Positions 1,171 through 60,108 of a stretch of 64,000 nt of DNA are shown one piece after another (position 1 is the stretch's first letter; every line of letters starts with the position of its first letter). Under the pieces are notes generated by a model. That model did no database searches. It was not told the origin of the DNA and worked only from the letters and a program-made list of their open reading frames with translations. The position numbers were made by a program, and so were the translations under genes. This DNA is from Minisyncoccota bacterium (lineage in GTDB: Bacteria; Patescibacteriota; Minisyncoccia; Phycocordibacterales; UBA9973), in contig JARLIG010000009.1 of NCBI GenBank assembly GCA_031291825.1, forward strand, positions 65,281-129,280, given 5' to 3'.

Positions 1171-2379
1171 ATGAAATATTGTAAAGATTGTGAACCAGCG
1201 CAAGAAAGTCATTTTATCGCGTATACTTCGGTTGTTTTGGGTTGGATAGATGAACCAATCTTTGATTTAATGGAGAAAATTTTTAATAATCTGGCAGAAA
1301 AAATTGGAGATTTAATAACTTTGCCTTTTTTTAGATTGATGGTTTTCTTGAAACTCGGACATTGGACGGACAAGCCTAACGCTAAAGACACTTGGCGCAC
1401 AAAATGTTTTTGGGATGAAGCAGAAAAACGTGGCATAAAAATGCGCGAATTTCATTTAGGTCCAATTGGAGATGGATTCGTTGCCGAATACAAAAGCCCA
1501 CGCCAAGGCGGGGTAAAAAAAACCATAACCTTTGATGGACTACCTCGTCCAGGATTTCAAGAATCAGCTGCCTTGAAGTGGATGGACAACAAAGGCACCA
1601 TGAAAATAAAATTCTTAAAAGAAGGTTTACCGGTAGCTCCTGGCGGAGTCGCTCTGACTCAAAAGGGTGCTCTTAAAATCTTTAACCGCATCCAAAAACC
1701 AGTTATCACCAAACCAAACTTAGGTTCCCGCAGTCGACATACAATGATTCACATCAACACGGAAGAAGCTTTGATAATCGGATTTAAAAAAGCTAAAAAA
1801 CTTTCTCCACTAGTGATAATAGAAGAAGAACTTCGCGGATATCTTTTTCGTGGAACTTTAATCGGCAAAAAATTGGCTGGAGTAGTCAGACGTGACCAGC
1901 CAGAAGTCACAGGCGACGGAAAACATACCTTGCATGAATTAATGGAAGAAGAAAATAAAAGACCAGAGCGTAATGGTCCAATATTCCACAAGATAACTAT
2001 TGATAAAGAAGCAGAGGAAGAATTAAGGAGGCAAAATATAAAATTGGAAGATGTCCCAGAAACAGGCAAGGTAATCACCTTCTCACAAAAAACTAGCCGT
2101 GGATGCGGAGGCATCACCACAGAGGTTACCGACATCGTCCACAAAGATAACGTAGAAATGTTAGAACATGTGGCAAAATTTTTGGACGACCCATTAATCG
2201 GCGTAGATTTTATAATTGAAGACATTACGAAATCTTGGAAGGAAGAACAGCATTGTGGAATAATCGAGTGCAACAGTTTGCCTTTCATTGATTTGCATCA
2301 CTACCCTCTTTTCGGCAAGCCAAACAACATCGCTGGTAAGCTCTGGGATTTAACATTGCCTGAATCAAAAGTCGCATAA
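1171..2379 (+). CDS. stand-alone ATP-grasp ligase resembling the ATP-grasp module of cyanophycin synthetase (CphA-like/RimK-like)
   Basis: ITKPNLGSRSRHT...VTGDGKHTLHEL...SRGCGGITTEVTDIVHKDN...IIECNSLP pattern typical of CphA-type ATP-grasp; paralog at 60615-61643. Confidence 0.5.
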   Translation: MKYCKDCEPAQESHFIAYTSVVLGWIDEPIFDLMEKIFNNLAEKIGDLITLPFFRLMVFLKLGHWTDKPNAKDTWRTKCFWDEAEKRGIKMREFHLGPIGDGFVAEYKSPRQGGVKKTITFDGLPRPGFQESAALKWMDNKGTMKIKFLKEGLPVAPGGVALTQKGALKIFNRIQKPVITKPNLGSRSRHTMIHINTEEALIIGFKKAKKLSPLVIIEEELRGYLFRGTLIGKKLAGVVRRDQPEVTGDGKHTLHELMEEENKRPERNGPIFHKITIDKEAEEELRRQNIKLEDVPETGKVITFSQKTSRGCGGITTEVTDIVHKDNVEMLEHVAKFLDDPLIGVDFIIEDITKSWKEEQHCGIIECNSLPFIDLHHYPLFGKPNNIAGKLWDLTLPESKVA

Positions 2380-5744: not shown

Positions 5745-5834
5745 TGGCGGAGAGAGAGGGATTCGAACCCTCGGTCCTTTTAAGGGGACGACAGTTTAGT
5801 AAACTGTTGGTTTAAACCACTCACCCATCTCTCC
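5745..5834 (-). tRNA. type II (long variable arm) tRNA, Ser-like, apparent anticodon ACU (unusual)
   Basis: Reverse complement folds as GGAGAGA/TCTCTCC acceptor, GGGTTCGAATCCC T-arm, 3-bp D-stem, long variable arm, G73, encoded CCA; anticodon stem ACAGT/ACTGT with loop TTACTAA. Confidence 0.65.
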
Positions 5835-6040: not shown

Positions 6041-6448
6041 TTATTTTGCTTTTTTCTTTTTAGCCCCGCCCGTACGGCTATGGCCGAGGGAAACTTTAGC
6101 TGGCTTTTTTACTGGCTTTTTAGCAGCACCTTTCCATTCTCCTTTTAATTTTTTTGCAAAAGCTTTAATTTCTTTTTCGTGGGCTACATATTCTTTGGCA
6201 TAGTTTTCTGAAACAATATCAACGGTCTTGTGATATATAGGCGTACCAACTTCTTTCGCCTTCTTAACTTCAACCTCTACTTCTTTCTTAATCTTTGTGA
6301 ATAAAGCTGAAGCCTTCTTTTGATGAGCTTTAGCTTTTGGTCCTAATAAATAATATGCTCCAGCGCCAGCTGCGCCAAGCGCGGCCACTCCAACTAAAAC
6401 CTTGCCACCAGATATTCCACCCTTTTTATGCTTTATTACTTTTTTCAT
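6041..6448 (-). CDS. YtxH-like (DUF948-type) lysine-rich protein with one hydrophobic segment
   Basis: GGKVLVGVAALGAAGAGAYYLLGPKAKAHQKK motif, Lys-rich coiled-coil/H1-like tail (AAKKPVKKPAK...KKKKAK). Start taken at the MKKVIKHKK Met because the longer ORF (to 6553) would run through a conserved intergenic motif. Confidence 0.4.
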   Translation of the reverse strand: MKKVIKHKKGGISGGKVLVGVAALGAAGAGAYYLLGPKAKAHQKKASALFTKIKKEVEVEVKKAKEVGTPIYHKTVDIVSENYAKEYVAHEKEIKAFAKKLKGEWKGAAKKPVKKPAKVSLGHSRTGGAKKKKAK

Positions 6449-6461
6449 ATTTATATTGATT

Positions 6462-6506
6462 TGATTTTGCGAAATCATGTCGCGCAACCGTCCATTTAGC
6501 GCGACC
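6462..6506 (+). repeat. conserved intergenic motif (copy 1): TGATTTTGCGAAATCATGTCGCGC-loop-GCGCGAC
   Basis: Near-identical copies at 18990-19031 and, in inverted orientation, at 60064-60108. Contains the palindrome TGATTT-TGCG-AAATCA plus a GTCGCG...CGCGAC hairpin with a variable loop. Confidence 0.7.
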
Positions 6507-13548: not shown

Positions 13549-13622
13549 TCCGTCCTCTTGGACTCGAACCAAGGACCCTCGAGGTATAAGCTCGATGCTC
13601 TAACCAGCTGAGCTAAGGACGG
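13549..13622 (-). tRNA. tRNA-Ile (UAU anticodon)
   Basis: Reverse complement CCGTCCTTAGCTCAGCTGGTTAGAGCATCGAGCTTATACCTCGAGGGTCCTTGGTTCGAGTCCAAGAGGACGGA has anticodon stem TCGAG/CTCGA with loop CTTATAC, A73 and C1:G72. Confidence 0.7.
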
Positions 13623-15588: not shown

Positions 15589-15647
15589 TCCAGTATATTA
15601 GCACAAAAAAACCGAAAGGTGAAATTCAGTTTATCTATAAATATCTG

Positions 15648-16036
15648 TGGAGATGGGGGAAATCGAATCCCCGTGCAGAAGGTAGTTGTAAAGAAGTCTA
15701 CATGCTTAGCGCGCTTTTTGGTTTAAATTAAAAAATTCTTAAACGTGCCAAATATTTTTTAATCGAGCTCTAAATTTTCGAGCGTATGTTCGAGCGGGCA
15801 ACGCCTTATCCCGATAATATTATGCCTCGTCTTATATATCGGAAGTCTATAAGAGAGACACCACCCTAGGCTTACGCGAAAGATGGAGCAAGAGCTAACG
15901 AGTTACCGAAGTAAGGCGAAAGCATTGCCGTGAAAGCTGATTTTGCAATTAGCTATTGAACGAATTTTTACGAGATTACGTTCATACTCGACATGCATCA
16001 ATGACAAATGGCCAACTGTCTATGCCTTGCATCCCC
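15648..16036 (-). ncRNA. ssrA: tmRNA (ssrA), one-piece
   Basis: Immediately downstream of smpB on the same strand; 5' GGGGATG pairs with 3' CATCTCC acceptor; T-arm GGGGATTCGATTTCCCC; internal tag-like reading frame ending ...LAPSFA-TAA. Confidence 0.65.
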
Positions 16037-16047
16037 ATATTTGTATT

Positions 16048-16494
16048 TCAACGTTCTTTGAAATCCCTGCGAATCTCGCGATCTGTGTCGCGCTTCTTGA
16101 TAGTTTCGCGTTTATCAAATTTTTTCTTGCCTTTGACCAGCGCGATTTCTACCTTGATTTTTCTATTTTTATTATACACTGAAATTGGCACTATTGTCAA
16201 ACTCTTGTTTTTCTCGCTTCCGGCGAGTTCGGCAATTTCTTTTTTGGTCAGTAAAAGTTTTCTGTTTTTAAGCGGGTCGTAATCTTTTGGAGAATTTTTG
16301 GGCTGATATGGAGGGATATTCGCGTTGATGAGAAATGCTTCACCACCACGTATAATGACAAAAGCTCCTTCGAGTGACATCTGCCCCGCACGCACGGACT
16401 TTACTTCCGTACCCAAAAGCTCAATACCTGTTTCGTATTTTTCTAAGATTTCGTAATTGAACCGCGCTTTGCGGTTTTCAGTATAATTTGCCAT
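16048..16494 (-). CDS. smpB: SsrA-binding protein SmpB
   Basis: NRKARFNYEILEKYEAGIEL...GAFVIIRGGEAFL canonical SmpB. Confidence 0.9.
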   Translation of the reverse strand: MANYTENRKARFNYEILEKYETGIELLGTEVKSVRAGQMSLEGAFVIIRGGEAFLINANIPPYQPKNSPKDYDPLKNRKLLLTKKEIAELAGSEKNKSLTIVPISVYNKNRKIKVEIALVKGKKKFDKRETIKKRDTDREIRRDFKER

Positions 16495-17380: not shown

Positions 17381-17725
17381 ATGACAAGAGTAAAAAAGGG
17401 AGTACATGCATTAAAACGAAGGAGAAGTGTCTTGAAGCAGACCAAAGGAATGCGTCATGGACGTAGCACAAAAGAACGTCAAGCAAAAGACGCACTTTTG
17501 CACTCTGGAAGTTATTCTTTTGCGCACCGCAAAGACAAGAAGTCGCACAATCGCAAGCTTTGGAATATTAAAATCAATGCTGGTGCACGTGAACTCGGTA
17601 TGTCTTATTCAAAACTGATGGGCGCTTTACACAAGAAAAATATTCTGCTTGACCGCAAGATTCTCTCAGGCTTAGCCGAACACAATCCTGAAACTTTTGC
17701 CAAAGTACTTGCAGCTGTAAAATAA
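17381..17725 (+). CDS. rplT: 50S ribosomal protein L20
   Basis: MTRVKKGVHALKRRRSVLKQTKG...FAHRKDKK canonical L20. Confidence 0.9.
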   Translation: MTRVKKGVHALKRRRSVLKQTKGMRHGRSTKERQAKDALLHSGSYSFAHRKDKKSHNRKLWNIKINAGARELGMSYSKLMGALHKKNILLDRKILSGLAEHNPETFAKVLAAVK

Positions 17726-17737
17726 AAATACACAAAT

Positions 17738-17762
17738 AAAAATCCCCTTCTCGGGGATTTTT
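17738..17762. terminator. bidirectional intrinsic terminator AAAATCCCCTTCTCGGGGATTTT
   Basis: GC hairpin flanked by A and T runs after rplT; same architecture at 21277-21298 and 47805-47826. Confidence 0.6.
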
Positions 17763-17778
17763 ATTATTATTTAAATAA

Positions 17779-18302: not shown

Positions 18303-18908
18303 CTAAGCAGATGTTTTTGTAACTTTATACTCAACCTTATCTTTTTTTACCATAACAATGATTTCTTCTAATAGTTTTTTGGGGTCCTTGCCTTTGACAA
18401 TCTTTGAATTAGGACGGTGGCCTTTGGCAAGAATTTCTTCCAGCTCTGCCCCCATATCCCATGGGCCTTCAAATATACCTAGAGGTTTTGCATCTTCAAA
18501 AGCGACAGTGAACTCGTGAATCGTACCGATACGTCCACAGCCACAGATGACTGCATCTGCACTACGAGTGAGAAGTAGGTCACGTCCAGGATAGCCAAAG
18601 CCAGTGTAAATAATCAAATCCATATAATCAAGCGGAAGCTTGTAGACTTCCACATGTTCTCGTTCAGATGCGGCTGGAGATATGCCAATAGAAATTCCAC
18701 CGGCTTCTTTCGCTCCCATCGCTGTCCAAAAAGGAAAACCCGTCGTAGCGCCAGTTACCAACACTGCTCCTTGGCGGGCAATTTCTCGTCCGAGTTCTTT
18801 TGCTAGATCGAGTGCACCGAGACCGCAAGCACTAGTCTCTGCCGCACCAGAAACACAAATTTTTATTTGATTGTGTCCATGTTTATCGTTTAGTTCTTTT
18901 AAATCCAT
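18303..18908 (-). CDS. LOG/TIGR00725-like Rossmann-fold nucleotide-binding protein
   Basis: ICVSGAAETSACGLG...VTGATTGFPFW...ICGCGRIGTIHE resembles LOG-family GGGxGxMG/PGGxGTxxE; TATAAT lies 6 nt before the ATG. Confidence 0.45.
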   Translation of the reverse strand: MDLKELNDKHGHNQIKICVSGAAETSACGLGALDLAKELGREIARQGAVLVTGATTGFPFWTAMGAKEAGGISIGISPAASEREHVEVYKLPLDYMDLIIYTGFGYPGRDLLLTRSADAVICGCGRIGTIHEFTVAFEDAKPLGIFEGPWDMGAELEEILAKGHRPNSKIVKGKDPKKLLEEIIVMVKKDKVEYKVTKTSA

Positions 18909-18942
18909 TCGAGCATTATAGCACCAAAAAAGAAGATTCCAA

Positions 18943-19054
18943 AATTTTAGAGACTTGCGCAGTGCGACGGCACGAGCAGGAAGAATTTTTGATTTTGCGA
19001 AATCATGTCGCGTAAGTCCTACTAACGCGACTAAAATATCTGTGCTCTAAAATT
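18943..19054 (+). repeat. composite intergenic repeat: ~75-nt element X with 10-nt terminal inverted repeats (AATTTTAGAG...CTCTAAAATT) that contains a copy of the 45-nt GCGAAATCATGTCGCG motif
   Basis: Second copy of X at 25262-25338 lacks the inner motif and has compensatory changes in both arms (AATTTTGGAG...CTCCAAAATT); shared core CTTGCGCAG...CGAGCAGGAAGAATTTTT...ATATCTGTGCTC. Confidence 0.65.
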
Positions 19055-19075
19055 TGGGAATCTTCTTTTAATTTT

Positions 19076-20452
19076 TTAGAAATCCAACACCACACTGCTC
19101 CCTTGTTCTGGCGCGGAAGCATTGAGTCCTAGATTGTCACGAATTTTTTGTACTAAAAACATTTCCGATTTTGGTTCTCCCATTACGACGAAAATTCTTT
19201 TGACTGTATCTTGCATATATGACACAAATTCGAGCAAATGGTCAGAATCTTTATGCCCAGAATATCCAGAAATTATTACGATATGTGCTCGAACAATAAC
19301 CTCTTCACCAGAAATACGTACTGTTTTCATTCCCTCTTCAATCAAACGCCCAGGTGTGCCGACAGACTGATAACCAGTCAAAAGCAATGTATTGTTCGCA
19401 TTCGGTAGATAATGTCTCTCATGATGCACTACTCGTCCGCCAGTAGACATGCCACTCCCAGCAATCACTATCTTTGGGTCTGGCACGGTGCCAATCAGCT
19501 TGGATTCTTCGGAACGAAGCGTACTATGTAATCCAGGGAAATCAAATAAATATTTTCCAGGAGAAATCATTGCTTGTGCGGCATCATTAAAATATTCTTT
19601 ATATTGCTTGAAAACTTCTGTCAGACGGATAGCCAACGGAGAATCAAAAAATATCGGCATCACTGGAATACGGTCATTTGTCACCATACCATCCAATTCA
19701 AAAAGAAGTTCTTGTGAACGTTCCAAAGAAAAAGTCGGAATAACTAGTGTTCCTTTTCTCTTGTAATTATCTTGAATCGTTTCTGCTAAAAACTTTTGAC
19801 GGTCATTTCTGTCTTCGTGGTTGCGGTCGCCATAGACACTTTCCATTATCAAATAGTCCGCATCAGTAATCTTTTCCGTATCGGGCAAAATTGGCGAAGG
19901 ACTATTACCTAAATCTCCTGTGAAAACAATTTTTTTGCCGTTATAAATAAATTCCACCATCGCGGACCCTAAAATATGTCCGGCATTTAAAAAATTAACC
20001 GTCACGTTTGGAGTGATTTTTATATCTTCATGATATTTAAAGCCTTGCCAGAGTGAAAGTGAAAGTTTGATATTCTCTGCAGAATAAATTTTATCTAAAC
20101 CTAGTTCCGTATTTTTGCTTAAAATTCCAGCGGTATCTTCGAGCATCGGCAAAGCTAATCCATGCGTCGGCTCAGTGGAATAAATTTTACCGCGGAAGCC
20201 TTCTTCTATTAATTTTGGCACTCGGCCTAGATGGTCTACGTGCGCATGCGTTACAAAAAGTATATCTATTTCTTTTGGATTATAAGTAAATGGGTCCCAG
20301 TTTATGTCATCTGCCACTTTGGCGCCTTGGGTTAATCCGCAATCAACTAAAACTCTTAGGCCATCAATTTCCAATAGAAAATTTGCGCCAGTAACTGAAC
20401 CTGTTCCTCCGTAAAATGTCACCTTGGCTGTTTTGCCTGTTGTATTTTCCAT
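19076..20452 (-). CDS. MBL-fold beta-CASP ribonuclease/hydrolase (CPSF73/RNase-J-like, short form)
   Basis: HAHVDHLGRVP (HxHxDH), beta-CASP region, ~460 aa; probable start at MENTTGKT. Confidence 0.6.
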   Translation of the reverse strand: MENTTGKTAKVTFYGGTGSVTGANFLLEIDGLRVLVDCGLTQGAKVADDINWDPFTYNPKEIDILFVTHAHVDHLGRVPKLIEEGFRGKIYSTEPTHGLALPMLEDTAGILSKNTELGLDKIYSAENIKLSLSLWQGFKYHEDIKITPNVTVNFLNAGHILGSAMVEFIYNGKKIVFTGDLGNSPSPILPDTEKITDADYLIMESVYGDRNHEDRNDRQKFLAETIQDNYKRKGTLVIPTFSLERSQELLFELDGMVTNDRIPVMPIFFDSPLAIRLTEVFKQYKEYFNDAAQAMISPGKYLFDFPGLHSTLRSEESKLIGTVPDPKIVIAGSGMSTGGRVVHHERHYLPNANNTLLLTGYQSVGTPGRLIEEGMKTVRISGEEVIVRAHIVIISGYSGHKDSDHLLEFVSYMQDTVKRIFVVMGEPKSEMFLVQKIRDNLGLNASAPEQGSSVVLDF

Positions 20453-20484
20453 TATTTGTATATTGTACCCCATTTGTAAAAAAA

Positions 20485-20517
20485 AATCCGCAATTATGCG
20501 GAATTCTTTTTAGGACT
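20485..20517. terminator. hairpin TCCGCAATTATGCGGA flanked by A-run/T-run (bidirectional terminator-like)
   Basis: Perfect 6-bp stem with AAAAAAAAA upstream and ATTCTTTTT downstream. Confidence 0.4.
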
Positions 20518-20720
20518 ATCTCGGATGTATTACCATAGCTTAAAGCTAAGTGGGTGTTAGACGTTTGAAACCAAGGCTTCACTCGATCGAAACTCCCATA
20601 AATTAGTGTTCTAGGTAATAATCAGAAATAACCCTACCTAAACTATACACTCCGTAAAATTTTCTGCAACCTAGACGAACTATTTTTTTTGTTTTCGAAT
20701 GAATTCAAGAAAAAATTTAA

Positions 20721-21260
20721 TTAAAAATGCATATCAAACCAATTCAAACCGTAATTTTTTGTAATTACATCTCTCTCGCCGAGAGGAGTTGCTATTTTAC
20801 TTTCAAAACCAAATAATTTAATTGCTTCTTGAATGCTTTCTTCGCTGTTCCCTTCTATTTCTAAATAAGCAGGCATTTTAGGATATTGATCTAAGTCAAA
20901 TCTCCAATCCTTGTACTTCCATGAAATACGATCTTTTTCTTGGTGACCATAAATTTCTAAACCTATCTCCAAAAACAACTCTTCACACGACTTAAGGTCC
21001 GTAATTTTTAAATTTATTTCTTTTTTTGTACTAGAGGCGCCTAAGTGTTCTCTTTTGCCTTTCCAGGTAATTTCACTATTCCCTTCGCTGTCTGTTCTAA
21101 TGCGCAGAAACCAAGGATATTTACCTTCTTCGTGGTTTGGTGCTTTAAACCAATCAACTGAAAGCCGTGTATCAAGAATTTTCTCTGCATTCAATTCAAG
21201 CATTTTTTCTCTAAATTTATTTACATCCACCTCTAAAATTTTTGTTTCTATTTCTTGCAT
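20721..21260 (-). CDS. CYTH-domain protein (triphosphate tunnel metalloenzyme; class IV adenylate cyclase/thiamine-triphosphatase-like)
   Basis: N-terminal EIETKILEVD (ExExK CYTH signature) and size ~180 aa. Confidence 0.55.
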   Translation of the reverse strand: MQEIETKILEVDVNKFREKMLELNAEKILDTRLSVDWFKAPNHEEGKYPWFLRIRTDSEGNSEITWKGKREHLGASSTKKEINLKITDLKSCEELFLEIGLEIYGHQEKDRISWKYKDWRFDLDQYPKMPAYLEIEGNSEESIQEAIKLFGFESKIATPLGERDVITKNYGLNWFDMHF

Positions 21261-21276
21261 AAAATTATCTTAACAT

Positions 21277-21298
21277 AAAATCCCCTTTCGGGGATTTT
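21277..21298. terminator. intrinsic terminator AAAATCCCCTTTCGGGGATTTTAT downstream of ndk
   Basis: GC hairpin plus T-run. Confidence 0.55.
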
Positions 21299-21310
21299 AT
21301 CAATTATTAT

Positions 21311-21895
21311 TTACTCGTCTATTCCATAACGCTTGTAATCATACGTCTCACCATCTCCAAACCAATGTTTAATCTCATGCTCTGCCTCTTCTGGAGTCTC
21401 AGAACAGTGTATGATGTTTGCCACAGCTCGCTTTTCTTTGTTTGCAAGAGCAGGACTGTCTACAGAAAAATCTCCGCGAATAGTGCCCACAGCCGCGAGA
21501 TACGGCATAGTTTCCCCTGCAACCTTACGGACTACGTCTACTGCGTGAGTACCTTGCACTACTATCTTTACAAGTGGTGCGGACTTCATAAAATCAAGAA
21601 GCCACTTGCGAATTTCCGGACCAATTTTTTCCGGTTCAATGGTGCCAAAGTCTAGCATCGCATCATAGCCATATTTCTGATAAGTAGAGAGGGTCTTTTG
21701 TCCCAATCTGGTTATCCAAGCTTCATCTTTTGGGTAGTGATTGTGTAGCTGGTCATGAGTAGGCTGAAACATTTCAAGCGCCACGATCTTTAAATCTCGC
21801 TGTTCAAAACGACTAATAATTTCGCCAATAAGGCCCTTTCGAACTCCGTCTGGCTTTATCATCACATATGTTCTCTCTTTTTTTGGATCTGTCAT
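21311..21895 (-). CDS. ndk: nucleoside diphosphate kinase (long form)
   Basis: ERTYVMIKPDGVRKGLIGEIISRFE ... NIIHCSETPEEAEHEIKHWF (NIIHGSD motif). Confidence 0.85.
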   Translation of the reverse strand: MTDPKKERTYVMIKPDGVRKGLIGEIISRFEQRDLKIVALEMFQPTHDQLHNHYPKDEAWITRLGQKTLSTYQKYGYDAMLDFGTIEPEKIGPEIRKWLLDFMKSAPLVKIVVQGTHAVDVVRKVAGETMPYLAAVGTIRGDFSVDSPALANKEKRAVANIIHCSETPEEAEHEIKHWFGDGETYDYKRYGIDE

Positions 21896-21938
21896 AAATT
21901 CTATCTTAGCAGAAAAAAGTTTTTTTGTAAAATTTTAT

Positions 21939-22454
21939 TTATTTAAAAACACTAGTCGTGTCATAGCCCAATTCTTTCGCCCGAGCGATAGATTTTTTGA
22001 AAAAATAAATCCAATGGTCATAATCTTTTTCCTGATTTCTAGAATTCCAATTCTCTAAAATTTCCTGCGCCGTTACCCATTCCAGAGTAAATTTTTCATG
22101 CGCCTCAAGTTGAGTTGACATCAATTTGGTACTTTTTAAGATTACCAGAAAACATGTCGCGTGTGCCACGCGGTCGACATTTTTTAATGTATTGTGGAAA
22201 TGACACAAAGCTTCGGCAATTTTTTCAACATAAAGAAAATCAGACAATCCACTTTCTTCTCTAACCTCTCGAAGAACGCCATCTTTAATATCTTCGCCTA
22301 CGTTAACACCTCCAGAAAAAAGCCGGTACAAACCACTTTCCTGTTTACCAACTGCGTACTTCTGACTTTGCGGGTCAAAAACAACTCCGCATCCACCATC
22401 TCGACGTTCTTCCTTTTCTCTCTTTATTCCAAATTCAGGAATATCAGTTTCCAT
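21939..22454 (-). CDS. NUDIX hydrolase
   Basis: Nudix box GGVNVGEDIKDGVLREVREESGL; 5 nt from the start of the next gene, so operonic. Confidence 0.75.
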   Translation of the reverse strand: METDIPEFGIKREKEERRDGGCGVVFDPQSQKYAVGKQESGLYRLFSGGVNVGEDIKDGVLREVREESGLSDFLYVEKIAEALCHFHNTLKNVDRVAHATCFLVILKSTKLMSTQLEAHEKFTLEWVTAQEILENWNSRNQEKDYDHWIYFFKKSIARAKELGYDTTSVFK

Positions 22455-22459
22455 AAATT

Positions 22460-25228
22460 TTATTCCATTGAACTAAATCTTGCCATAATCTCAGCCTCGA
22501 CTTCTTCCCTGTCTCGACCATATTTTTCGTAAGAAAGTTGCTTTAAGCTGTCCACCACATCCATACTACTGCCTTTTTCTGGCGGAAGAGTTTTTATATT
22601 AAAAGGTTTAGTTGGCTGACCATTAACAAGCATATTCACATACGCATTGTAGTTATCTAGTTTCGTTATGTCAGATGCGCTAAATTGAGGTTTAAATCTT
22701 GGTTCCAAAAATGTCGCGTCTTCGGTGCCGACACGGAAGACAGCCATCGAGCCTACGTTTCCAAATACGGCATTTTTAATATTGTCTTCCAACTGAGCAA
22801 TGTATTGATGAGCGATATTCAAGGAAAGTCTATACTTGCGCGCTTCGGACAAAATAGAAGCTATGGAATCCGTTGTGACATTTTGGAACTCGTCAATGTA
22901 AAGATAAAAATCATTCATCGGTTTACCGAACATATCTACTCGTGAGAGTGCCGCCATTTGAATCTTTCCAACCAACACAAGACCAATAAGATTTGCGTTA
23001 ATATCGCCGAGTCTGCCCTTGGAAAGATTCACAAGAAGAATTTTTTTCTCGTCCATAATTTTTCGGAAATTGAAAACTGAATTTTGTTGCAACACGACTG
23101 GACGCATGATATCGTTCGAAATAAAATTATCAAATTTGGAAGAAATATAAGGAACGAAGTTTGCCAAGGATTGGTCTCCAGTCGTCTGTTCGGCGGAAAT
23201 CCAAAACTGTTTGATGATTGGATTCTTGCAACGAGAAAGTTTCAAGTCACGGAATTCTTTGTCTGCCAAAACACGTGTAATTTCCAGTAAAGTTGAACCC
23301 GACTCTGGGTCTTCCATCACCAAAAATGCACTATTTCTAAAATATTGTTCAAACATCGCTCCGCCGCCGACTTTCATATCAAAGAGTTTATTAAAAATTC
23401 CCATCATTTCGTTCACCACAAAAGTTTTCTGTTCGGGATATTTCGGGTCATATTCAAGCATGTTAAGTCCCATCGGTCGAGCTGTGTAAGCTGGGTCAAA
23501 ATAAATCACATCGTCAATACGTTCAGGCGGAATACGAGACAAAATAGTTTGAATGTCTGTGCCGTGCGGGTCAATATAGCAACAACCGTCTCCATTTCGG
23601 ATGTCCTGCGTAATCATATTGAGCATGATATTTGTCTTTCCAGTACCAGTCTGACCGATAACATAAAAATGTCGCATACGGTCTTCACGTGCCAAATGAA
23701 TTTCTGTGTCTCGTCCCCGATAACTGTTTACCCCTATGACTATTCCCTGCTGTCCCATCTCAATTGGTGCTGGCGCAATACCCGCTTTCGCTTCCTTGAG
23801 CTGTGGCTGTCCGCCGATACCAACTGGGAAATGAAACACCGAAGATAATTCTTGTAAATTCAAAGGCAAAGTATGTTCGGCAGAAAATGTGCGGTAAGAA
23901 AAATCATGGAAAAGTTGTTTTAGTTCGCTGCCATTCGCCTGCTCAAAAACAAAAGAATTACTAGCCGCTTCAGAAAACTGATTGAAGGATGACTCTATCT
24001 CTTTCAAAACAGCTTCTGCTCGTTCTCTGGTAGTACCTGAAGCCACCACACGAATATTTGCTTTCATGATGGTGCTTTTTATTTTGTTGCCTATCTTTTC
24101 AGCTGCGCCTTCATCTATTGCTCTCCTGCCTTTAATGGATTTTTCTTTAACTTCTTCTTTTTTTTCTTTATATCCAAACAAAAGGCCCTTGCCTGCTTTC
24201 AAAAAAGCATGGTTGATTTTATAAAAATTATCAGCCGCATTTTTTACCGAATAACCATCCTTAACATCGTCCAAAATTTTATGAAACTCATTAATAAATT
24301 TTTCTCCAGCCGGCATAATCACAACCTGAATCGCTGCGCCCTCTCCCGCAGTTTTTAATTGAGAAAAAACATTTAAGATTGGATTCATCGGGTCATGTTC
24401 TATCTTGTCATAAGTTTTAATCGGCATTACGTCACGCTGTGTAAAGCTAGCATAGGCGCCAACTGAAAAGCCACCATCGTTGAACACATTGTAGTCATCT
24501 GTCACTTCACGAATCTTAGCATTATGATAGAAGGCTAAAATTTGTTTTTCAAAAAGAGAGATGTGTTTGTTTGGTATCGCAGCAAAAACAACAACTTCGT
24601 CGGTGTTAATACCCAGCCCTACTTCCAAAACAAAATAATTTTCTTTTTCATTATACTTACCTTCACCGATGGACTGCATCCCAGCATAAAATTGTTCCAT
24701 CGCGCCGATGAACTCTTTGAAACCTTTTGATTTATCTGCTTCATCGACTGACGGCGGAAGCGTAATTTCAAAAAGTGTCATATTGAGAGCTTTGTATTGA
24801 GGAGAACTTTCTTTAAAATCAAGCTTAGCATATCCATTCTTTATGTATTGAATAAGAATTCGATGAAAATCAGCATCAATATGTGGATTATTCATAGCCT
24901 CCACCACACTAAGTGCGTTCCTAACACCTTTAGTGATGACAATCCCCAAAAGTTCTTCCATCACATTATCGTGCGGCTCAGGACGCAAAGCTAAAACGAT
25001 ACTCTCCACTTCTTTTTCTTTTAAGATATTGCTCTTGTGAACAAATTCTTCAGCTGGTATTTCTTTGTATAGGCCAATGACATCTTTCGCAGCATCATCT
25101 CCCGCGTTTTCTATGTGTCCGATATTAATCAATTCCTTCTCACGCATTTCTACATGCGCACGCAAATAATTGAGCTCGTCTTCAGGAGTTTTAAACTTCG
25201 GCATTTCTCTGAAAAAGGATGGTTCCAT
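22460..25228 (-). CDS. large cytoplasmic P-loop ATPase with C-terminal VirD4/TraG (type IV coupling protein)/HerA-FtsK-like domain and ~500-aa unknown N-terminal region
   Basis: Walker A GQTGTGKT, CCYIDPHGT (xxDPKGE-like), Walker B LYIDEF, IAHQYIAQL...FGNVGSMAVFRVG (T4CP Q/AQL motif); no N-terminal TM helices. Confidence 0.5.
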   Translation of the reverse strand: MEPSFFREMPKFKTPEDELNYLRAHVEMREKELINIGHIENAGDDAAKDVIGLYKEIPAEEFVHKSNILKEKEVESIVLALRPEPHDNVMEELLGIVITKGVRNALSVVEAMNNPHIDADFHRILIQYIKNGYAKLDFKESSPQYKALNMTLFEITLPPSVDEADKSKGFKEFIGAMEQFYAGMQSIGEGKYNEKENYFVLEVGLGINTDEVVVFAAIPNKHISLFEKQILAFYHNAKIREVTDDYNVFNDGGFSVGAYASFTQRDVMPIKTYDKIEHDPMNPILNVFSQLKTAGEGAAIQVVIMPAGEKFINEFHKILDDVKDGYSVKNAADNFYKINHAFLKAGKGLLFGYKEKKEEVKEKSIKGRRAIDEGAAEKIGNKIKSTIMKANIRVVASGTTRERAEAVLKEIESSFNQFSEAASNSFVFEQANGSELKQLFHDFSYRTFSAEHTLPLNLQELSSVFHFPVGIGGQPQLKEAKAGIAPAPIEMGQQGIVIGVNSYRGRDTEIHLAREDRMRHFYVIGQTGTGKTNIMLNMITQDIRNGDGCCYIDPHGTDIQTILSRIPPERIDDVIYFDPAYTARPMGLNMLEYDPKYPEQKTFVVNEMMGIFNKLFDMKVGGGAMFEQYFRNSAFLVMEDPESGSTLLEITRVLADKEFRDLKLSRCKNPIIKQFWISAEQTTGDQSLANFVPYISSKFDNFISNDIMRPVVLQQNSVFNFRKIMDEKKILLVNLSKGRLGDINANLIGLVLVGKIQMAALSRVDMFGKPMNDFYLYIDEFQNVTTDSIASILSEARKYRLSLNIAHQYIAQLEDNIKNAVFGNVGSMAVFRVGTEDATFLEPRFKPQFSASDITKLDNYNAYVNMLVNGQPTKPFNIKTLPPEKGSSMDVVDSLKQLSYEKYGRDREEVEAEIMARFSSME

Positions 25229-25261
25229 TAGAAATATTATATCATAAAGGGTGAATTTTTG

Positions 25262-25338
25262 AATTTTGGAGACTTGCGCAGGCTGGCGAGCCGAGCAGGA
25301 AGAATTTTTTAGTAAAAAAATATCTGTGCTCCAAAATT
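25262..25338 (+). repeat. element X copy 2 (AATTTTGGAG...CTCCAAAATT terminal inverted repeats)
   Basis: See 18943-19054; lies between map and the ATPase gene, ~30 nt upstream of a TTCAAA-N16-TATAAT-N7-ATG promoter. Confidence 0.6.
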
Positions 25339-25351
25339 TAAAATATACCCT

Positions 25352-26131
25352 TTAAACTTTCGTTAAAATTTCCGGATCGCCTTCGGTAATCAAAATAGTT
25401 TTTTCAAAATGCGCGCTGGGCTTTCTATCCGCCGTACGAAAAGTCCAATCATCGTCATCAATCGTTACATTCTTTGTTCCCAGATTTAACATCGGTTCAA
25501 TAGCTATGATCATTCCAGGCACCAGCTTTGCACCTGTTCCCTTTTTACCAAAGTTTGGTACAAAAGGATCTTCGTGGATAGCCTTGCCGACACCATGCCC
25601 CGCCAAAACCTCCACAATGCCATATTTCTGCCCTTTTTCCTGTGATCGTACAAACTTCTCGATGGCATAGCCGATATCTCCAACTCTATTACCTGCCACG
25701 GCGGCATCAATTCCAACCTGTAAAGATTTCTCAGTAACTTCCAAAAGTTTTAAATTTTTTTCACTTGTTTTTCCCACGGGCACAGTTATCGCCATGTCGG
25801 TAAACATTCCGTGATGTTTAGTGCCTAAATCAAGCGAAATAATATCACCTTCTTTTAGAATTCTTGTTTTGCTGGGAATTCCATGCACCACTTCATCGTT
25901 GACCGAAACGCACAAAGTTGCCGGAAAAGGAGTCGAGGCGCCTTCTGGACGATAATTCAAAAAAGCAGGAACGTCACCCATCTCACGAATTATTTTTTCC
26001 GCATAAATATCTAAATCTTTTGTGGAGACCCCTACCGCTACTTTTTCTTTAACCTTATAAAGAACAGTCGCTAGGTTTTTACAACCCTCGCGCATTATTT
26101 CAATTTCTTCTGGTGTTTTAATTATTATCAT
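25352..26131 (-). CDS. map: methionine aminopeptidase type I
   Basis: Canonical MAP-1 fold residues (DIISLD, HGVG, metal-binding D/H/E pattern). Confidence 0.9.
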   Translation of the reverse strand: MIIIKTPEEIEIMREGCKNLATVLYKVKEKVAVGVSTKDLDIYAEKIIREMGDVPAFLNYRPEGASTPFPATLCVSVNDEVVHGIPSKTRILKEGDIISLDLGTKHHGMFTDMAITVPVGKTSEKNLKLLEVTEKSLQVGIDAAVAGNRVGDIGYAIEKFVRSQEKGQKYGIVEVLAGHGVGKAIHEDPFVPNFGKKGTGAKLVPGMIIAIEPMLNLGTKNVTIDDDDWTFRTADRKPSAHFEKTILITEGDPEILTKV

Positions 26132-28956: not shown

Positions 28957-29032
28957 TTAATTTAATTACGAATTATTAATTACGGATTACGAATTGAATT
29001 TTAATTTGAAATTCTTAATTCGTAATTTCTAA
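28957..29032. repeat. AT-rich intergenic palindrome built from AATTACGAATT / AATTCGTAATT units (rpsE|rplO spacer)
   Basis: The same AATTCGTAATT(CGTAATT) unit recurs in the rplR|rpsE spacer 29616-29646 and the rpmC|rpsQ spacer 34323-34355. Confidence 0.6.
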
Positions 29033-29614
29033 TTGCTCTCTTGGCACTTCTTTGTTATCAACCACCACAACTGGACTTTCAGCTGCAATCTTTGTGTATT
29101 TGGAAGAAATTTGGGAAAGTGCGGACATGACTGCCTTGGCATTGTTTAATTTATTTTTACTATTAGACAAGATCTTTCCAGTAATGTCTTTCATACCGGA
29201 AATCTTCACGATGTCACGGATAACCGAACCGGCGACAAGTCCACGTCCTTTGTTTGGTCGTAGTGAGATATGCGAACTAGAGAATTTTGCGGAAAGTTCG
29301 TGAGGAATAGACATCGTTTTGGTCAAATTTAGTCTAATCATATTTTTCTTGGCATTGCGAAGAGCTTTGTTGATAGCGAGCGCGGTGTCTCCAGCTTTTC
29401 CTAAACCTAAACCAACAGCCCCCTTTTTATCACCCGCGATAAGAGCAACACTGAAGGAAAATCTTCGTCCTCCAGCAACTACTCTAGTCACTCGGCGAAT
29501 GTTTAAAATCTTTTGGTCAAACTCTGGCTTGGAGCGTGGAAAAGATGAACCGCCTCTGCGATTATTGTTCTTTCTTCCACTGCCACTGTTTGAATTTTCT
29601 TTTGGTTTTTCCAT
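29015..29614 (-). CDS. rpsE: 30S ribosomal protein S5
   Basis: IRRVTRVVAGGRRFSFSVALIAGDKKGAVGLGLGKA canonical S5. Confidence 0.9.
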   Translation of the reverse strand: MEKPKENSNSGSGRKNNNRRGGSSFPRSKPEFDQKILNIRRVTRVVAGGRRFSFSVALIAGDKKGAVGLGLGKAGDTALAINKALRNAKKNMIRLNLTKTMSIPHELSAKFSSSHISLRPNKGRGLVAGSVIRDIVKISGMKDITGKILSNSKNKLNNAKAVMSALSQISSKYTKIAAESPVVVVDNKEVPREQLEITN

Positions 29615-29643
29615 GTTCTTAATTCGTAATTCGTAATTTTTAA

Positions 29644-29985
29644 TTAGAACTCCAATCCCCCAGCTCGCGCTTCATCAGCCACTAATTTTACACGGCCAGT
29701 ATATTTAAAACCATTTCGGTCAAAGACAACTTTCTTGATTTTGGCTTTCGTGGCATTTAGAGCAATCGCACGACCAACTTCTTTAGCTCTTTCAGTCTTA
29801 GTGCCTTTGGTTGTCTTCACATCACTGGCTTCAGCTAAAGTTTTACCCACCATGTCATTGATCAATTGCGCATAGATAAATTTATTAGAACGAAAAACCG
29901 TGAGTCTTGGACGTTCTGCAGTTCCCACAATCTTGGCTCGGATTTTTCTCTTTAGTCTTATTCTTTTGTCTTGTTTATTTTGCAT
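29644..29985 (-). CDS. rplR: 50S ribosomal protein L18
   Basis: [29 protein letters not shown]18 pattern; no L30 gene between rpsE and rplO. Confidence 0.85.
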
Positions 29986-34322: not shown

Positions 34323-34353
34323 AAATTCGTAATTCGTAATTTTTAATCCGTAA

Positions 34354-37560: not shown

Positions 37561-37617
37561 AACATACTTATAAAAAAATACAAGTCCAGATAATAAAATT
37601 TGGGTAAACAAGGTAAT

Positions 37618-37646
37618 GGGGTTCGCCGACAGAATCGACGAACCCC
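37618..37646. repeat. GC-rich hairpin GGGGTTCGCCGACAGAATCGACGAACCCC (copy A); identical copy B at 37992-38020
   Basis: 29-nt direct repeat, 12-bp stem; each directly follows the stop codon of a minus-strand sORF. Confidence 0.7.
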
Positions 37647-37657
37647 ATTTTGAAGCC

Positions 37658-37837
37658 TTAGTAGCAGCCTCGATTGTCGTAGCGTATGAGCGCAGGACGC
37701 TCACGCGGAGCACGCACTGCAAGTTTGACGGCTTCGTACCCATCATCTGAGGAGTGAGCAACGAATGGCTCACCGCGACGGTAAGTAGAAGCGGAAACAA
37801 CGGTAAGTGTTTGCGGTACTTTTGTGTTCTTCTTCAT
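37658..37837 (-). CDS. island sORF g3 (59 aa, hydrophilic)
   Basis: SD AGGA 7 nt before ATG (CAGAGGACTTGAGATG); MKKNTKVPQTLTVVSASTYRRGEPFVAHSSDDGYEAVKLAVRAPRERPALIRYDNRGCY; stop abuts hairpin A. Confidence 0.35.
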   Translation of the reverse strand: MKKNTKVPQTLTVVSASTYRRGEPFVAHSSDDGYEAVKLAVRAPRERPALIRYDNRGCY

Positions 37838-37942
37838 CTCAAGTCCTCTGTGTGGATAGGTTGGCTTCCCATCCTCTGCTGTGAACATTGACATTGTGCT
37901 CTGCTTACATTGGACAAACAAAGCAGGAACTTCTTATCTTTA

Positions 37943-37970
37943 TTTATACCACTTAAAATAATTAACACAA
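37943..37970 (-). promoter_or_regulatory. island promoter box B: TTGTGTTAATTATTTTAAGTGGTATAAAT (minus strand)
   Basis: TTGTGT-N16-TATAAA; same box at 38311-38336 (TTGTGTTATTTTAATTAAGTGTTATAAC) and 38586-38612 (TTGTGTTATTTTGAAAAAGTGGTATAAA). Confidence 0.5.
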
Positions 37971-38034
37971 GGGGAAAGTAAACATGAAGATGGGGTTCGC
38001 CGACAGAATCGACGAACCCCAAATTTGATATCTG

Positions 38035-38244
38035 CTACACCCGATACATCAATCTGTCTCCCCTCTCTGCTGACAGAGGAGACGCGACCACCTTCGGCTC
38101 AACACCACGCCGTGCGTCGTCGAATGCCTTCGACAAACCTCCAGGCTGTTCTCCTTCTTGCCGAGATTGGTTGTATTTCAAAAGAGACTGCTTTGAAGAC
38201 TGGTTGCTCTGATGTCTTGATCCTGAAGCGCTTGATTTGCTCAT
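38035..38244 (-). CDS. island sORF g2 (69 aa, Ser/Gln-rich hydrophilic)
   Basis: SD AAGGAG 6 nt before ATG; MSKSSASGSRHQSNQSSKQSLLKYNQSRQEGEQPGG...; stop abuts hairpin B. Confidence 0.4.
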   Translation of the reverse strand: MSKSSASGSRHQSNQSSKQSLLKYNQSRQEGEQPGGLSKAFDDARRGVEPKVVASPLSAERGDRLMYRV

Positions 38245-38310
38245 CGTTTCTCCTTGAGGGGTTGTGTTTGTTAAACAACTTAAACTAAAAAGGTGCATAT
38301 CTTTTTTAGT

Positions 38311-38336
38311 TATAACACTTAATTAAAATAACACAA
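38311..38336 (-). promoter_or_regulatory. island promoter box C
   Basis: TTGTGTTATTTTAATTAAGTGTTATAAC ~60 nt upstream of the g2 SD. Confidence 0.45.
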
Positions 38337-38367
38337 GGTAAAATTTTTAAATTGAGTAGACATAGCG

Positions 38368-38393
38368 AGGGCGCCGAGTTGGTCTCGGCGCCC
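38368..38393. repeat. GC-rich perfect hairpin GGGCGCCGAG-TTGGTC-CTCGGCGCCC
   Basis: 10-bp perfect stem directly after the g1 stop. Confidence 0.6.
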
Positions 38394-38407
38394 TTGAATC
38401 TTAAATC

Positions 38408-38545
38408 TCATTCTTTGTCGTCGAAACGCCGACGGCGGCGCGGCTGACGGTTGCGAGGACGGTTTGGCAACTGCTGCGCGTTACGGGTAACCGCTCTGGT
38501 AACCCACTTCGGAGCTGATAGCTCCGCACGACGAGTTCTCGTCAT
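38408..38545 (-). CDS. island sORF g1 (45 aa, extremely Arg-rich)
   Basis: Hand-translated: SD GGAG 7 nt before ATG; MTRTRRAELSAPKWVTRAVTRNAQQLPNRPRNRQPRRRRRFDDKE-TGA. Not in the ORF track (shorter than 60 aa). Confidence 0.35.
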   Translation of the reverse strand: MTRTRRAELSAPKWVTRAVTRNAQQLPNRPRNRQPRRRRRFDDKE

Positions 38546-38585
38546 CTTTTTTCTCCAAATGGAAAAATGAACATCTATGGAGATA

Positions 38586-38612
38586 TTTATACCACTTTTT
38601 CAAAATAACACA
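38586..38612 (-). promoter_or_regulatory. island promoter box D
   Basis: TTGTGTTATTTTGAAAAAGTGGTATAAA ~40 nt upstream of the g1 ATG. Confidence 0.45.
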
Positions 38613-38633
38613 ATAGCAAAAGTGTATAAAGCA

Positions 38634-38674
38634 AAAGACGTCGGACATCTGTTGCTACAGGTGTCCGACGTCTT
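38634..38674. repeat. REP-like perfect palindrome AAGACGTCGGACA-loop-TGTCCGACGTCTT immediately after the rplB stop
   Basis: 13-bp perfect stem; member of the GACGTyGGACA family. Confidence 0.6.
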
Positions 38675-38695
38675 TTGCTTAAGTATTTTTATTTT

Positions 38696-54407: not shown

Positions 54408-54491
54408 GCTCGGGTGGCGAAACTGGTAGACGTACTACCTTGAGGTGGTAGCGCCCGCAAGGGCATGGGAGTTCAAATCTCCCCCCGAGCA
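54408..54491 (+). tRNA. tRNA-Leu (GAG)
   Basis: GCTCGGG acceptor, anticodon stem CTACC/GGTAG with loop TTGAGGT, long variable arm, A73. Confidence 0.85.
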
Positions 54492-54534: not shown

Positions 54535-54606
54535 GGTGGCTATGGTGTAGCGGTAGCACAGAGGCTTGTGGAGCCTTTAGCTCGGGTTCGATCCCCGATA
54601 GCCACC
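54535..54606 (+). tRNA. tRNA-His (GUG) with encoded G-1
   Basis: GGTGGCTA 5' end (G-1:C73), anticodon loop TTGTGGA, GGTTCGATCC T-loop. Confidence 0.85.
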
Positions 54607-59494: not shown

Positions 59495-60040
59495 ATGTCT
59501 AAACAAGAAACAGAAGGAATTAGAAATTGGTATGCCATACACACCTATGCTGGATACGAAAACGTTGTCTTGCGTAATTTGCGTCAGCGTATTGATTCTC
59601 TTGGCATGAATGACAAAATTTTTAATGTTATTGTTCCAGTTGAGAAAAAAATAAAAATAAAAGCTGGCAAGCGCGTAGAAGTGGAAGAAAAGATTTATCC
59701 AGGCTATGTTTTAGTGGATATGGTTGTGACGGATGATTCTTGGTATGTAGTACGTAACACACCGAGAGTCACTGGCTTCGTTGGTGCTGGAGTCAACCCT
59801 GTACCCTTAAAAAAAGAAGAGGTGGACTATCTCTTCAAGAAAATGGACACAGGCACTCTCAAGCACAATATCGATATGGCTATCGGAGAAACAGTTTTGA
59901 TTAACGATGGACCATTTAAGGATTTGGAGGGCAAGATAAATTCAGTAGACCAAGACCGAGGTAAAGTTAAAGTTCTAGTTTCGATGTTCGGTCGCGAAAC
60001 TCCAGTAGAACTAGACTTCTTGCAAGTAAAGAAGATTTAA
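59495..60040 (+). CDS. nusG: transcription antiterminator NusG
   Basis: NGN domain WYAIHTYAGYEN, KOW domain at C-terminus. Confidence 0.9.
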   Translation: MSKQETEGIRNWYAIHTYAGYENVVLRNLRQRIDSLGMNDKIFNVIVPVEKKIKIKAGKRVEVEEKIYPGYVLVDMVVTDDSWYVVRNTPRVTGFVGAGVNPVPLKKEEVDYLFKKMDTGTLKHNIDMAIGETVLINDGPFKDLEGKINSVDQDRGKVKVLVSMFGRETPVELDFLQVKKI

Positions 60041-60063: not shown

Positions 60064-60108
60064 GTCGCGCTAAAAGGACGATTGCGCGACATAATTTCGC
60101 AAAATTAA
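60064..60108 (-). repeat. conserved intergenic motif (copy 3, inverted) ending 4 nt before the rplK ATG
   Basis: Reverse complement ATTAATTTTGCGAAATTATGTCGCGCAATCGTCCTTTTAGCGCGAC is near-identical to 6462-6506. Confidence 0.7.

Follow-up and report, generated by a model that had tools for sequence, protein, structure and literature searches.

The BOX elements of pneumococcus are modular intergenic repeats with a boxA-boxB(n)-boxC organization, whose paired terminal parts form a long stem-loop. The REP/BIME, ERIC and Correia (CREE/NEMIS) sequences of Proteobacteria are palindromic intergenic repeats that lie at gene ends, show an orientation bias and presence/absence polymorphism, and give rise to RNA hairpins able to act as terminators or mRNA stabilisers. 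Here we describe a structured intergenic element of a Minisyncoccota bacterium (Patescibacteria), identified in a 64,000-nt stretch of contig JARLIG010000009.1 (assembly GCA_031291825.1, positions 65281 to 129280), which we refer to as the window. Two copies are present, with cores at 18943–19054 (copy 1) and 25262–25338 (copy 2) of the + strand. Like BOX, the element is intergenic and multi-copy, folds into a long stem-loop, can contain an optional internal module of ~45 nt and can adjoin promoters or terminators. BOX was therefore an initial guess (45-nt optional module, ~39% GC), which was rejected because the hosts are Patescibacteria, a different phylum, and because the BOXA1R primer sequence had no match at three or fewer mismatches. 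The element also differs from BOX in its low density, in an outer stem that is unique to each locus, and in a three-way junction that is kept across genomes saturated at synonymous sites, such that the resemblance is architectural only. Our element resembles REP/BIME, ERIC and Correia sequences in the features listed above, its RNA form and terminator role being putative, but has no apparent link to a RAYT or other transposase and no evident target-site duplication. Moreover, conservation in situ is stronger, and four covarying helices form a three-way junction instead of a simple imperfect palindrome.

Comparison with other described systems gave a similarly mixed result. As in bidirectional intrinsic (Rho-independent) terminators, a symmetric arrangement of A-tract, stem and T-tract is found at the base of the closing stem (P1), and the element directly follows a stop codon and precedes the next promoter. 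However, the loops of such terminators are 3–8 nt long, whereas the structured 'loop' of our element spans ~60–100 nt and was not called by a consensus scan. The stem is also ~20–30 bp long and mostly A/U-rich, and one strand is selected. Orphan non-coding RNA motifs of the Rfam type share with the element a definition by covariation, conserved junction and internal-loop nucleotides and restriction to a lineage, but the element is absent from Rfam 15, is closed by a locus-specific stem of unusual length and in most cases lies antisense to genes. Finally, integron attC sites and IS200/IS605-type (PATE) sites are likewise intergenic, strand-specific single-stranded hairpins with imperfect pairing; they have no target-site duplication, and none was evident for our element. 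Both identities were rejected: neither copy has R''/R' boxes (GTTRRRY/RYYYAAC) at its ends, the IS200-type site boxes are absent, and no cassette array or integrase is nearby. In addition, copies are conserved vertically and their neighbours are syntenic housekeeping genes.

The initial annotation had placed both copies correctly, as reading of the sequence and a search of the window with a covariance model (R1) recovered exactly the same coordinates. This model was built on 15 sequences, i.e. 14 from relatives plus copy 2. The cmsearch scores were 98.6 bits (E = 2e-22) for copy 2 and 78.2 bits (E = 3.7e-17) for copy 1, and no third copy was found by the model in the 64-kb window, including when the filters were turned off. 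Alignment of the two copies also bore out the common blocks CTTGCGCAG, CGAGCAGGAAGAATTTTT and ATATCTGTGCTC, the compensatory change in the 10-nt terminal inverted repeats (A-T in copy 1, G-C in copy 2) and the presence of a nested motif in copy 1, all of which had been claimed. The terminal inverted repeats are thus real, although the term is too small; they constitute the inner part of a stem of ~20–30 bp, the outer part of which is unique to the locus. In copy 1, for example, gapless extension of the arms showed that the repeat runs outward past 10 nt, with AAAAGAAGATTCC pairing with GGAATCTTCTTTT.

The whole hairpin of copy 1 extends from 18928 to 19069 (+ strand), with the 5' arm of P1 at 18928–18952 and the 3' arm at 19045–19069, and encloses the three-way junction and the nested module. 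Its predicted free energy is −57 to −58 kcal/mol, and the fold of a 119-nt core has a z score of −3.9. The copy 1 core (18943–19054) contains inner P1, P2/P2a, P3 with the insert, and J3/1. The copy 2 hairpin extends from 25246 to 25353 (+ strand; −42 kcal/mol) and consists of an outer stem (AAAGGGT/ACCCTTT), an internal loop and an inner stem followed by the three-way junction. At its 3' base, this hairpin overlaps the stop codon (25352–25354) of the gene encoding methionine aminopeptidase (MetAP). The core of this copy (25262–25338) is made up of the inner 10 bp of P1, an A at J1/2, P2 (CUUGC/GCAGG), an internal loop (GCA/GA), P2a (GGCU-GGCG-AGCC), an A at J2/3, P3 (AGAAUUUUUU-AGUA-AAAAAAU-A-UCU) and GUG at J3/1. 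Both strands of the two window copies folded far better than shuffled sequences (z ~ −4), with the + strand being the more stable.

Across the family, each copy is a hairpin of ~100–145 nt in which the basal stem P1 closes a conserved three-way junction. P1 is mostly ~18–30 bp long (12–35 bp in a gapless count) and is different in sequence at each locus; its inner 10 bp are of the semi-conserved UUUUAGAG type and are followed by 10–20 bp of locus-specific sequence. P1 is commonly flanked by an A-run where it opens and a T-run where it closes. P2 is a 5-bp helix with the consensus CUUGC/GCAGG, usually with a U·G pair (25 of 31 copies). An internal loop with the consensus GCA/GA and the general form G(N)A/GA separates P2 from P2a, which consists of 4 bp under an RNCG loop. 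P3 (consensus AGA-AUUUUUY, ANYA loop, RAAAAAU-A-UCU) contains ~10 A/U-rich bp and a bulged A. The junction strands are 1, 1 and 3 nt long, corresponding to a single nucleotide after P1, an A before P3 and GUR before P1'. In a subfamily that we call type B, the P2a hairpin is retained and the internal loop is a symmetric GA/GA. Because of this symmetry, the G(N)A/GA loop most likely forms tandem G·A pairs. Nearly all conserved nucleotides occupy defined structural positions, and there is no long single-stranded seed. Inspection revealed no covariation between the RNCG and ANYA loops and no pseudoknot.

Further copies were looked for in relatives, where they were found in many genomes and with abundant compensatory change. 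In the 15 seed sequences 97.5% of the cells were paired, and double-sided changes were present in 16 of 29 pairs. The values for 31 copies aligned with the model were 96.2% and 27 of 29, respectively, although these counts lean towards the structure because the alignment was fitted to the model. None of 500 shuffles matched the observed covariation in either alignment, and slid controls were only 42–58% paired for the 15 seeds and 42–61% paired across both alignments. The inner hairpin P2a provides an example within the window, as GUGC-GACG-GCAC in copy 1 is replaced by GGCU-GGCG-AGCC in copy 2. P2 was fixed in the pattern used for scanning, and hence its invariance among the pattern-found copies is a matter of ascertainment. 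This helix does covary in copies found with the model: GUCUC/GAGGC in L026, CUCUAC...GUAGG in L040 and UUUGC/GCAAA in L081 (L-numbers denote related loci retrieved by scans or by synteny). P3 is GC-rich in L026 and L081, in which the architecture is kept despite different helix sequences.

The window belongs to a Candidatus Pacebacteria/Paceibacterota metagenome-assembled genome (MAG). Scanning GTDB representative genomes with a sequence pattern yielded 30 loci. Fourteen of these contained the same element, all in Patescibacteria MAGs labelled Nomurabacteria, Paceibacterota, 'Saccharibacteria' or Patescibacteria group, with a GC content of 34–52%; the remainder were chance matches in GC-rich coding DNA. 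A pattern scan of metagenomes added ~14 copies, some of them redundant, and others were found in syntenic loci of relatives, which brought the number of non-redundant copies to ~30, from MAGs of Patescibacteria (Paceibacterota, Nomurabacteria). The viral contigs scanned contained no true copy, as the single pattern match there was not an element. Two paralogous copies in the same MAG (CAYHBT01; L007 and L028) have ~30 nt of identical stem on either side, and their outermost stem segments differ in a compensatory manner (GCCCAAACT/AGTTTGGGC vs TTGCGAAACT/AGTTTCGCAA). A search of the whole window against Rfam 15 at the gathering threshold identified only a transfer-messenger RNA (tmRNA) gene and four tRNA genes, and both copies gave only chance matches to microRNA, small nucleolar RNA and long non-coding RNA families (10–16 bits) at E≤10. 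Membership in an Rfam 15 family was rejected, as neither copy had a credible match, and literature searches found no description of the element. We conclude that the element is an uncatalogued family of structured intergenic elements, restricted to Patescibacteria as far as sampled, and we regard it as a new family of an established kind, i.e. a structured intergenic repeat or non-coding RNA motif.

Comparison of orthologous loci allowed the conservation of the element to be set against that of its flanking genes. At the junction between the MetAP gene (map) and the gene for a DUF8128/VirD4-like protein, which contains copy 2 in the window, fourfold-degenerate sites of the flanking genes were only 38–42% identical between the window and L001 and were therefore saturated, whereas 69 of 77 core nucleotides were identical. 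Six of the eight differences constituted three compensatory pairs, and the other two were in loops. At the junction between the RNase J-like gene and the LDcluster4/SLOG gene, which contains copy 1, fourfold-site identity between the window and L021 was 29% and core identity was 62 of 68. As the cores are ~90% identical while fourfold sites are saturated, we conclude that orthologous copies are held at the locus by strong purifying selection, and that this is not the decay of a dead insertion.

Selection acts on one strand. In 25 of 27 copies the + strand gave the more stable fold, often with a margin of 10–19 kcal/mol, and P1 pairs included 34 G·T but only 5 A·C mismatches. The + strand contains more C than G, and the usual reading of such a skew is that mutation bias would favour A·C over G·T. 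The G·T excess therefore reflects selection on the single-stranded + strand. We conclude that selection favours the + strand in single-stranded form, most simply as RNA and less simply as one DNA strand. The initial annotation had proposed a structured RNA or a cruciform under selection. Selection and structure both hold, since covariation in all helices, conservation above the neutral rate and G·U asymmetry were all observed, and a single strand (RNA) is favoured; the cruciform, and with it a double-stranded DNA site, is disfavoured because pairing in P1 is asymmetric between the strands.

Copy 1 lies between the RNase J-like and LDcluster4/SLOG genes, copy 2 lies between map and the DUF8128/VirD4-like gene, and each is antisense to both of its neighbours. 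As had been noted for both copies, the site is between the end of a gene and a leaderless-type promoter of the next minus-strand gene. An extended −10 element lies 6–7 nt before the ATG. A promoter scan placed the promoter of the LDcluster4/SLOG gene (ATG at 18908) at 18915–18942 on the minus strand (TTGGAA, a 16-nt spacer, TGcTATAAT and 6 nt to the ATG), and that of the DUF8128/VirD4-like gene (ATG at 25228) at 25236–25263 on the same strand (TTCAAA, a 16-nt spacer, TGaTATAAT and 7 nt to the ATG). Both −35 hexamers fall within the 5' arm of P1 of the respective copy. Leaderless-type starts are common in the window, as ~28 of 72 open reading frames (ORFs) have TANNNT 5–8 nt before the first ATG. 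The DUF8128 protein itself (22460–25228, minus strand, 922 aa) has weak matches to TraG/VirD4/HerA-like P-loop proteins. Its gene, which bears the DUF8128 name in relatives, is syntenic, directly following a secY-adk-map cluster in all of the related genomes examined.

The same two junctions are filled in some relatives and empty in others. In syntenic loci with gene calls, an empty junction consists of a stop codon, TGnTATAAT and an ATG within 5–22 nt, and a filled junction has the entire hairpin between the stop codon and TGnTATAAT-N6-7-ATG, such that only the gap between stop codon and promoter is replaced. Among such loci, the RNase J–LDcluster4 junction was filled only in the window and L081 (the copy 1 orthologue, L021/L081) and was empty in L072–L074 and L078–L080. 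The MetAP–DUF8128 junction contained canonical copies in the window, L001 and L073, type B copies in L076 and L079 and a variant with a GC-rich P3 in L081, and was empty in L074, L078, L080 and L082. In L072 (6316–6400), this junction is occupied by an unrelated ~47-nt core enclosed by a similar A/U-rich closing stem of 14–16 bp. Different inserts can apparently occupy one gap between stop codon and promoter. Two to three copies per 21-kb locus were found in L073, L076 and L081.

Orientation relative to genes was examined at two levels of annotation. With real gene calls, 10 copies were antisense and two were sense, which collapse to three antisense and two sense sites. When crude ORF calls were added, there were ~12 antisense and four sense tandem sites, with four copies between divergent genes and two between convergent genes. 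The antisense bias is thus real but moderate. The sense copies lie within co-directional gene pairs at L076 (18769–18842), L081 (20642–20749) and L017 (crude ORF calls). The L081 copy (20642–20749, + strand), which lies between genes for ribonucleotide reductase and cobalamin adenosyltransferase, carries an inserted 38-nt palindromic hairpin at the apex of P2a, and its P2 is entirely Watson–Crick (UUUGC/GCAAA), the usual U·G having gone. The gene on the 5' side of the element is divergently oriented in ~21 of 25 copies. In the window copies, L001 and L073, the base of P1 is 16–20 nt from the ATG of the neighbouring gene, and a reverse −10 sequence (NATTAT) is found ~5–7 nt before it. L012 contains two copies arranged head-to-head (5'-to-5') 4 nt apart between divergent genes, at 2010–2117 (minus strand) and 2122–2235 (+ strand), and each 3' end adjoins an extended −10 promoter.

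The interpretation that we favour, at a probability of roughly 45%, is that the element is a strand-specific structured RNA that acts as a transcription-boundary or terminator element. Three observations point to this interpretation: P1 resembles a bidirectional terminator at its base, in that an A-run, a stem and a T-run follow one another; the element replaces only the gap between stop codon and promoter; and transcription leaving the neighbouring promoter region and opposing the genes would usually produce the selected strand. The element would be transcribed and would work in cis, with the long stem and its flanking A/T tracts serving as a bidirectional intrinsic terminator tuned for non-coding-strand transcripts that leave the neighbouring promoter region. 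The conserved junction could then be a recognition platform for a conserved factor, possibly leaving a stable small RNA behind. The reverse −10 sequence near the base of P1 in four copies would fit divergent initiation at the base of the stem. A stable stem with a T-run, and a symmetric A-run, is present in most copies, and the terminator scan makes no call because the loop is not short.

Several observations weigh against this interpretation. The A and T tracts are symmetric, so that no T-tract polarity is visible, and a structured 'loop' of 77 nt is atypical of an intrinsic terminator. Ordinary bidirectional intrinsic terminators are present in the window at 17722–17771 and 21259–21308 (AAAATCCCC-TTCT/TTT-CGGGGATTTT), indicating that the genome uses conventional short GC-stem terminators too. 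Counting orthologous sites once leaves only a moderate antisense bias (~3:1). A promoter at a fixed position on the + strand could not be established for the copies as a whole, as the distances from TANNNT to the base of P1 showed no peak, and the head-to-head pair in L012 has no space for upstream promoters. Termination alone also does not explain the conserved junction, which implies a partner.

A more specific proposal, which we consider quite improbable, is that the element represents a new Patescibacteria-specific functional RNA. It would be a promoter-directionality or antisense-transcription terminator that insulates tightly packed leaderless genes from transcription of the wrong strand. 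Here the three-way junction, with its tandem G·A hairpin and ANYA hairpin, would recruit RNA polymerase or a termination or processing factor, or would itself be catalytic.

The main rival to a boundary RNA, albeit an unlikely one in our estimate, is a selfish non-autonomous palindromic repeat of the BOX, REP/BIME, Correia or PATE kind. A MITE of this sort, i.e. a miniature transposable element with inverted repeats, would spread between stop/promoter junctions, possibly as single-stranded DNA, and its hairpins would serve a mobilising enzyme as recognition sites and have no host function. The presence/absence polymorphism at orthologous junctions of close relatives is what such a repeat would produce, as are the occupation of one junction by different subfamilies and the occurrence of several similar copies per genome. 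The extended common flanks of the L007 and L028 paralogues point in the same direction, and so does a modular build in which small hairpins are carried at helix apices (P3 of copy 1, P2a of L081). A single-stranded DNA intermediate would suit the strand asymmetry too. Terminal inverted repeats are present as well, since all copies have the inner 10-bp P1; variation in P1 is compensatory within each copy, however, which transposase binding alone does not require. Identity of ~90% together with compensatory changes, at loci where synonymous sites are saturated, is unlike the pattern of decaying or hitch-hiking insertions, and in the lineage of the window orthologues are closer to each other than to paralogues. 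The density is low (2 copies in 64 kb) and the outer stem is unique at each locus. No direct repeat was found when filled and empty junctions were compared, although the boundaries lie in A/T runs and a duplication of 1–3 nt is possible. Among annotated neighbours in windows of 8–64 kb there was no gene for a transposase, integrase or reverse transcriptase, and the lack of true copies in viral contigs also argues against mobility. A boundary RNA and a mobile palindrome are not exclusive, as the features of both would be expected in a domesticated repeat.

It is also doubtful that the copies are independently transcribed genes for a trans-acting small RNA, which would sequester a protein or scaffold a ribonucleoprotein (RNP). 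Such genes would start at the base of P1 by way of the reverse face of the neighbour's −10 element and end at their own P1/T-tract. Conserved nucleotides in structural positions, with no seed, suggest protein binding over base-pairing, and the predominance of a divergent 5'-side gene (~21 of 25 copies) and the reverse −10 in the window copies, L001 and L073 would be compatible with a promoter of their own. However, no conserved, positioned promoter was apparent across copies; sense copies lie inside co-directional gene pairs (L076, L081 and L017), and the L012 pair has no promoter space. In addition, some close relatives have no copy, which would be odd for an essential RNP component.

Catalysis or ligand sensing, i.e. 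a new self-cleaving ribozyme or a riboswitch-like aptamer built on the three-way junction, is very improbable. The junction is compact, and its nucleotides and those of the internal loop are highly conserved. The element is multi-copy with an inconsistent gene association, and multi-copy spread without a fixed gene association is typical of small self-cleaving ribozymes. As no known class matched, any such function would be new. On the other hand, junction strands of 1, 1 and 3 nt without a pseudoknot or loop-loop covariation by inspection weigh against it, the hammerhead-like CUGACGA falls within a covarying helix and is not conserved, and the mostly antisense orientation disfavours a cis riboswitch. 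The hammerhead ribozyme was rejected outright, since CUGACGA is present only in copy 2, in the P2a helix and loop, copy 1 has UGCGACGG instead, and there was no Rfam match. An L7Ae-type kink-turn was likewise rejected: covariation fixes Watson–Crick pairs 20-33, 21-32, 22-31 and 23-30 immediately after the GCA loop, which does not fit the kink-turn register, and the loop has a 3x2 form (GCA/GA) that in type B copies becomes 2x2 (GA/GA). Bacterial signal recognition particle (SRP, 4.5S) RNA was rejected too, as there was no Rfam SRP match at E≤10, two copies occur in 64 kb and several in individual related loci, and the pairing register differs; reading the GCA/GA loop as SRP helix 8 clashes with the covariation register. 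Least credible of all is a double-stranded DNA feature acting on the adjacent promoter as a cruciform or protein-binding palindrome, because, although the neighbouring promoter shares its −35 region with a P1 arm and long perfect palindromes could extrude as cruciforms, a cruciform requires pairing of both strands, which the G·T over A·C excess in P1 and the frequent P2 U·G pair contradict, and sequence-specific binding of double-stranded DNA would not yield compensatory changes.

The nested motif of copy 1, described in the initial annotation as 45 nt long, is a two-hairpin module at 18991–19031 (+ strand) in the apical loop of P3, in which GAUUU-UGCG-AAAUC is followed by GUCGCG-N13-CGCGAC. 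Alignment showed that copy 2 and the copy 1 orthologue (L021/L081) have no module. Its absence from the orthologue indicates that the module is a recent insertion at the P3 apex of copy 1. Together with the 38-nt hairpin at the P2a apex of L081, it also shows that apical insertion of small hairpins recurs in this family of elements. Free-standing modules are found at two other stop/promoter junctions of the window. One, at 6463–6505 (+ strand), is between an upstream minus-strand ORF and a gene for a small membrane protein (ATG at 6448), and the other, at 60064–60106 (minus strand), is between nusG (59495–60040, + strand) and rplK (ATG at 60113, + strand); each is antisense to both of its neighbours. 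Both hairpins have undergone compensatory substitution among the three module copies: G-C is replaced by A-U in the first, a change borne by the 60064–60106 module, and C-G by U-A in the second. The module may constitute a second family of small structured elements. It was not found in the other retrieved loci, save for a partial TTGCGAAAC...GTCGC flank in L028.

Other features of the window were also recorded. The tmRNA gene is at 15645–16036 (minus strand, 115 bits), and the adjacent ORF at 16048–16494 is probably smpB, because SmpB is found in the syntenic loci. The tRNA genes are at 5748–5834, 13549–13622, 54408–54491 and 54536–54606. In the ribosomal-protein region, a AATTCGTAATTCGTAATTTTTAATT motif composed of tandem TTCGTAAT units is present a short distance upstream of gene starts, at 29010–29034, 29621–29645 and 34324–34348, and may be a common operator or promoter motif. 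Three short GC-rich minus-strand ORFs at 37600–38680 have a common upstream block (TATTTATACCACTT...AATAACACAAGG), and two of them share an identical 44-nt block with a GGGGTTCG...CGAACCCC hairpin (37604–37647 and 37978–38021). Near 45–51 kb, where a replication origin was considered as a means of telling replication polarity from transcription polarity, only a divergent operon boundary was found, with no dnaA.

Patescibacteria, also known as the candidate phyla radiation (CPR), account for a large and mostly uncultured share of bacterial diversity, and to our knowledge their non-coding RNA is little documented. The element is of interest for its very strong covariation, for its poorly understood hosts and for its unusual placement, antisense to genes and abutting promoters. 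Should it prove to be a mobile palindrome, no BOX/REP-like family would have been characterised earlier in Patescibacteria, and it would exemplify a repeat domesticated under purifying selection. A boundary or terminator RNA would instead reveal the way in which these reduced genomes keep antisense and read-through transcription in check. Either way, the covariance model is ready for annotating Patescibacteria genomes, and the element provides a target for metatranscriptome mapping.

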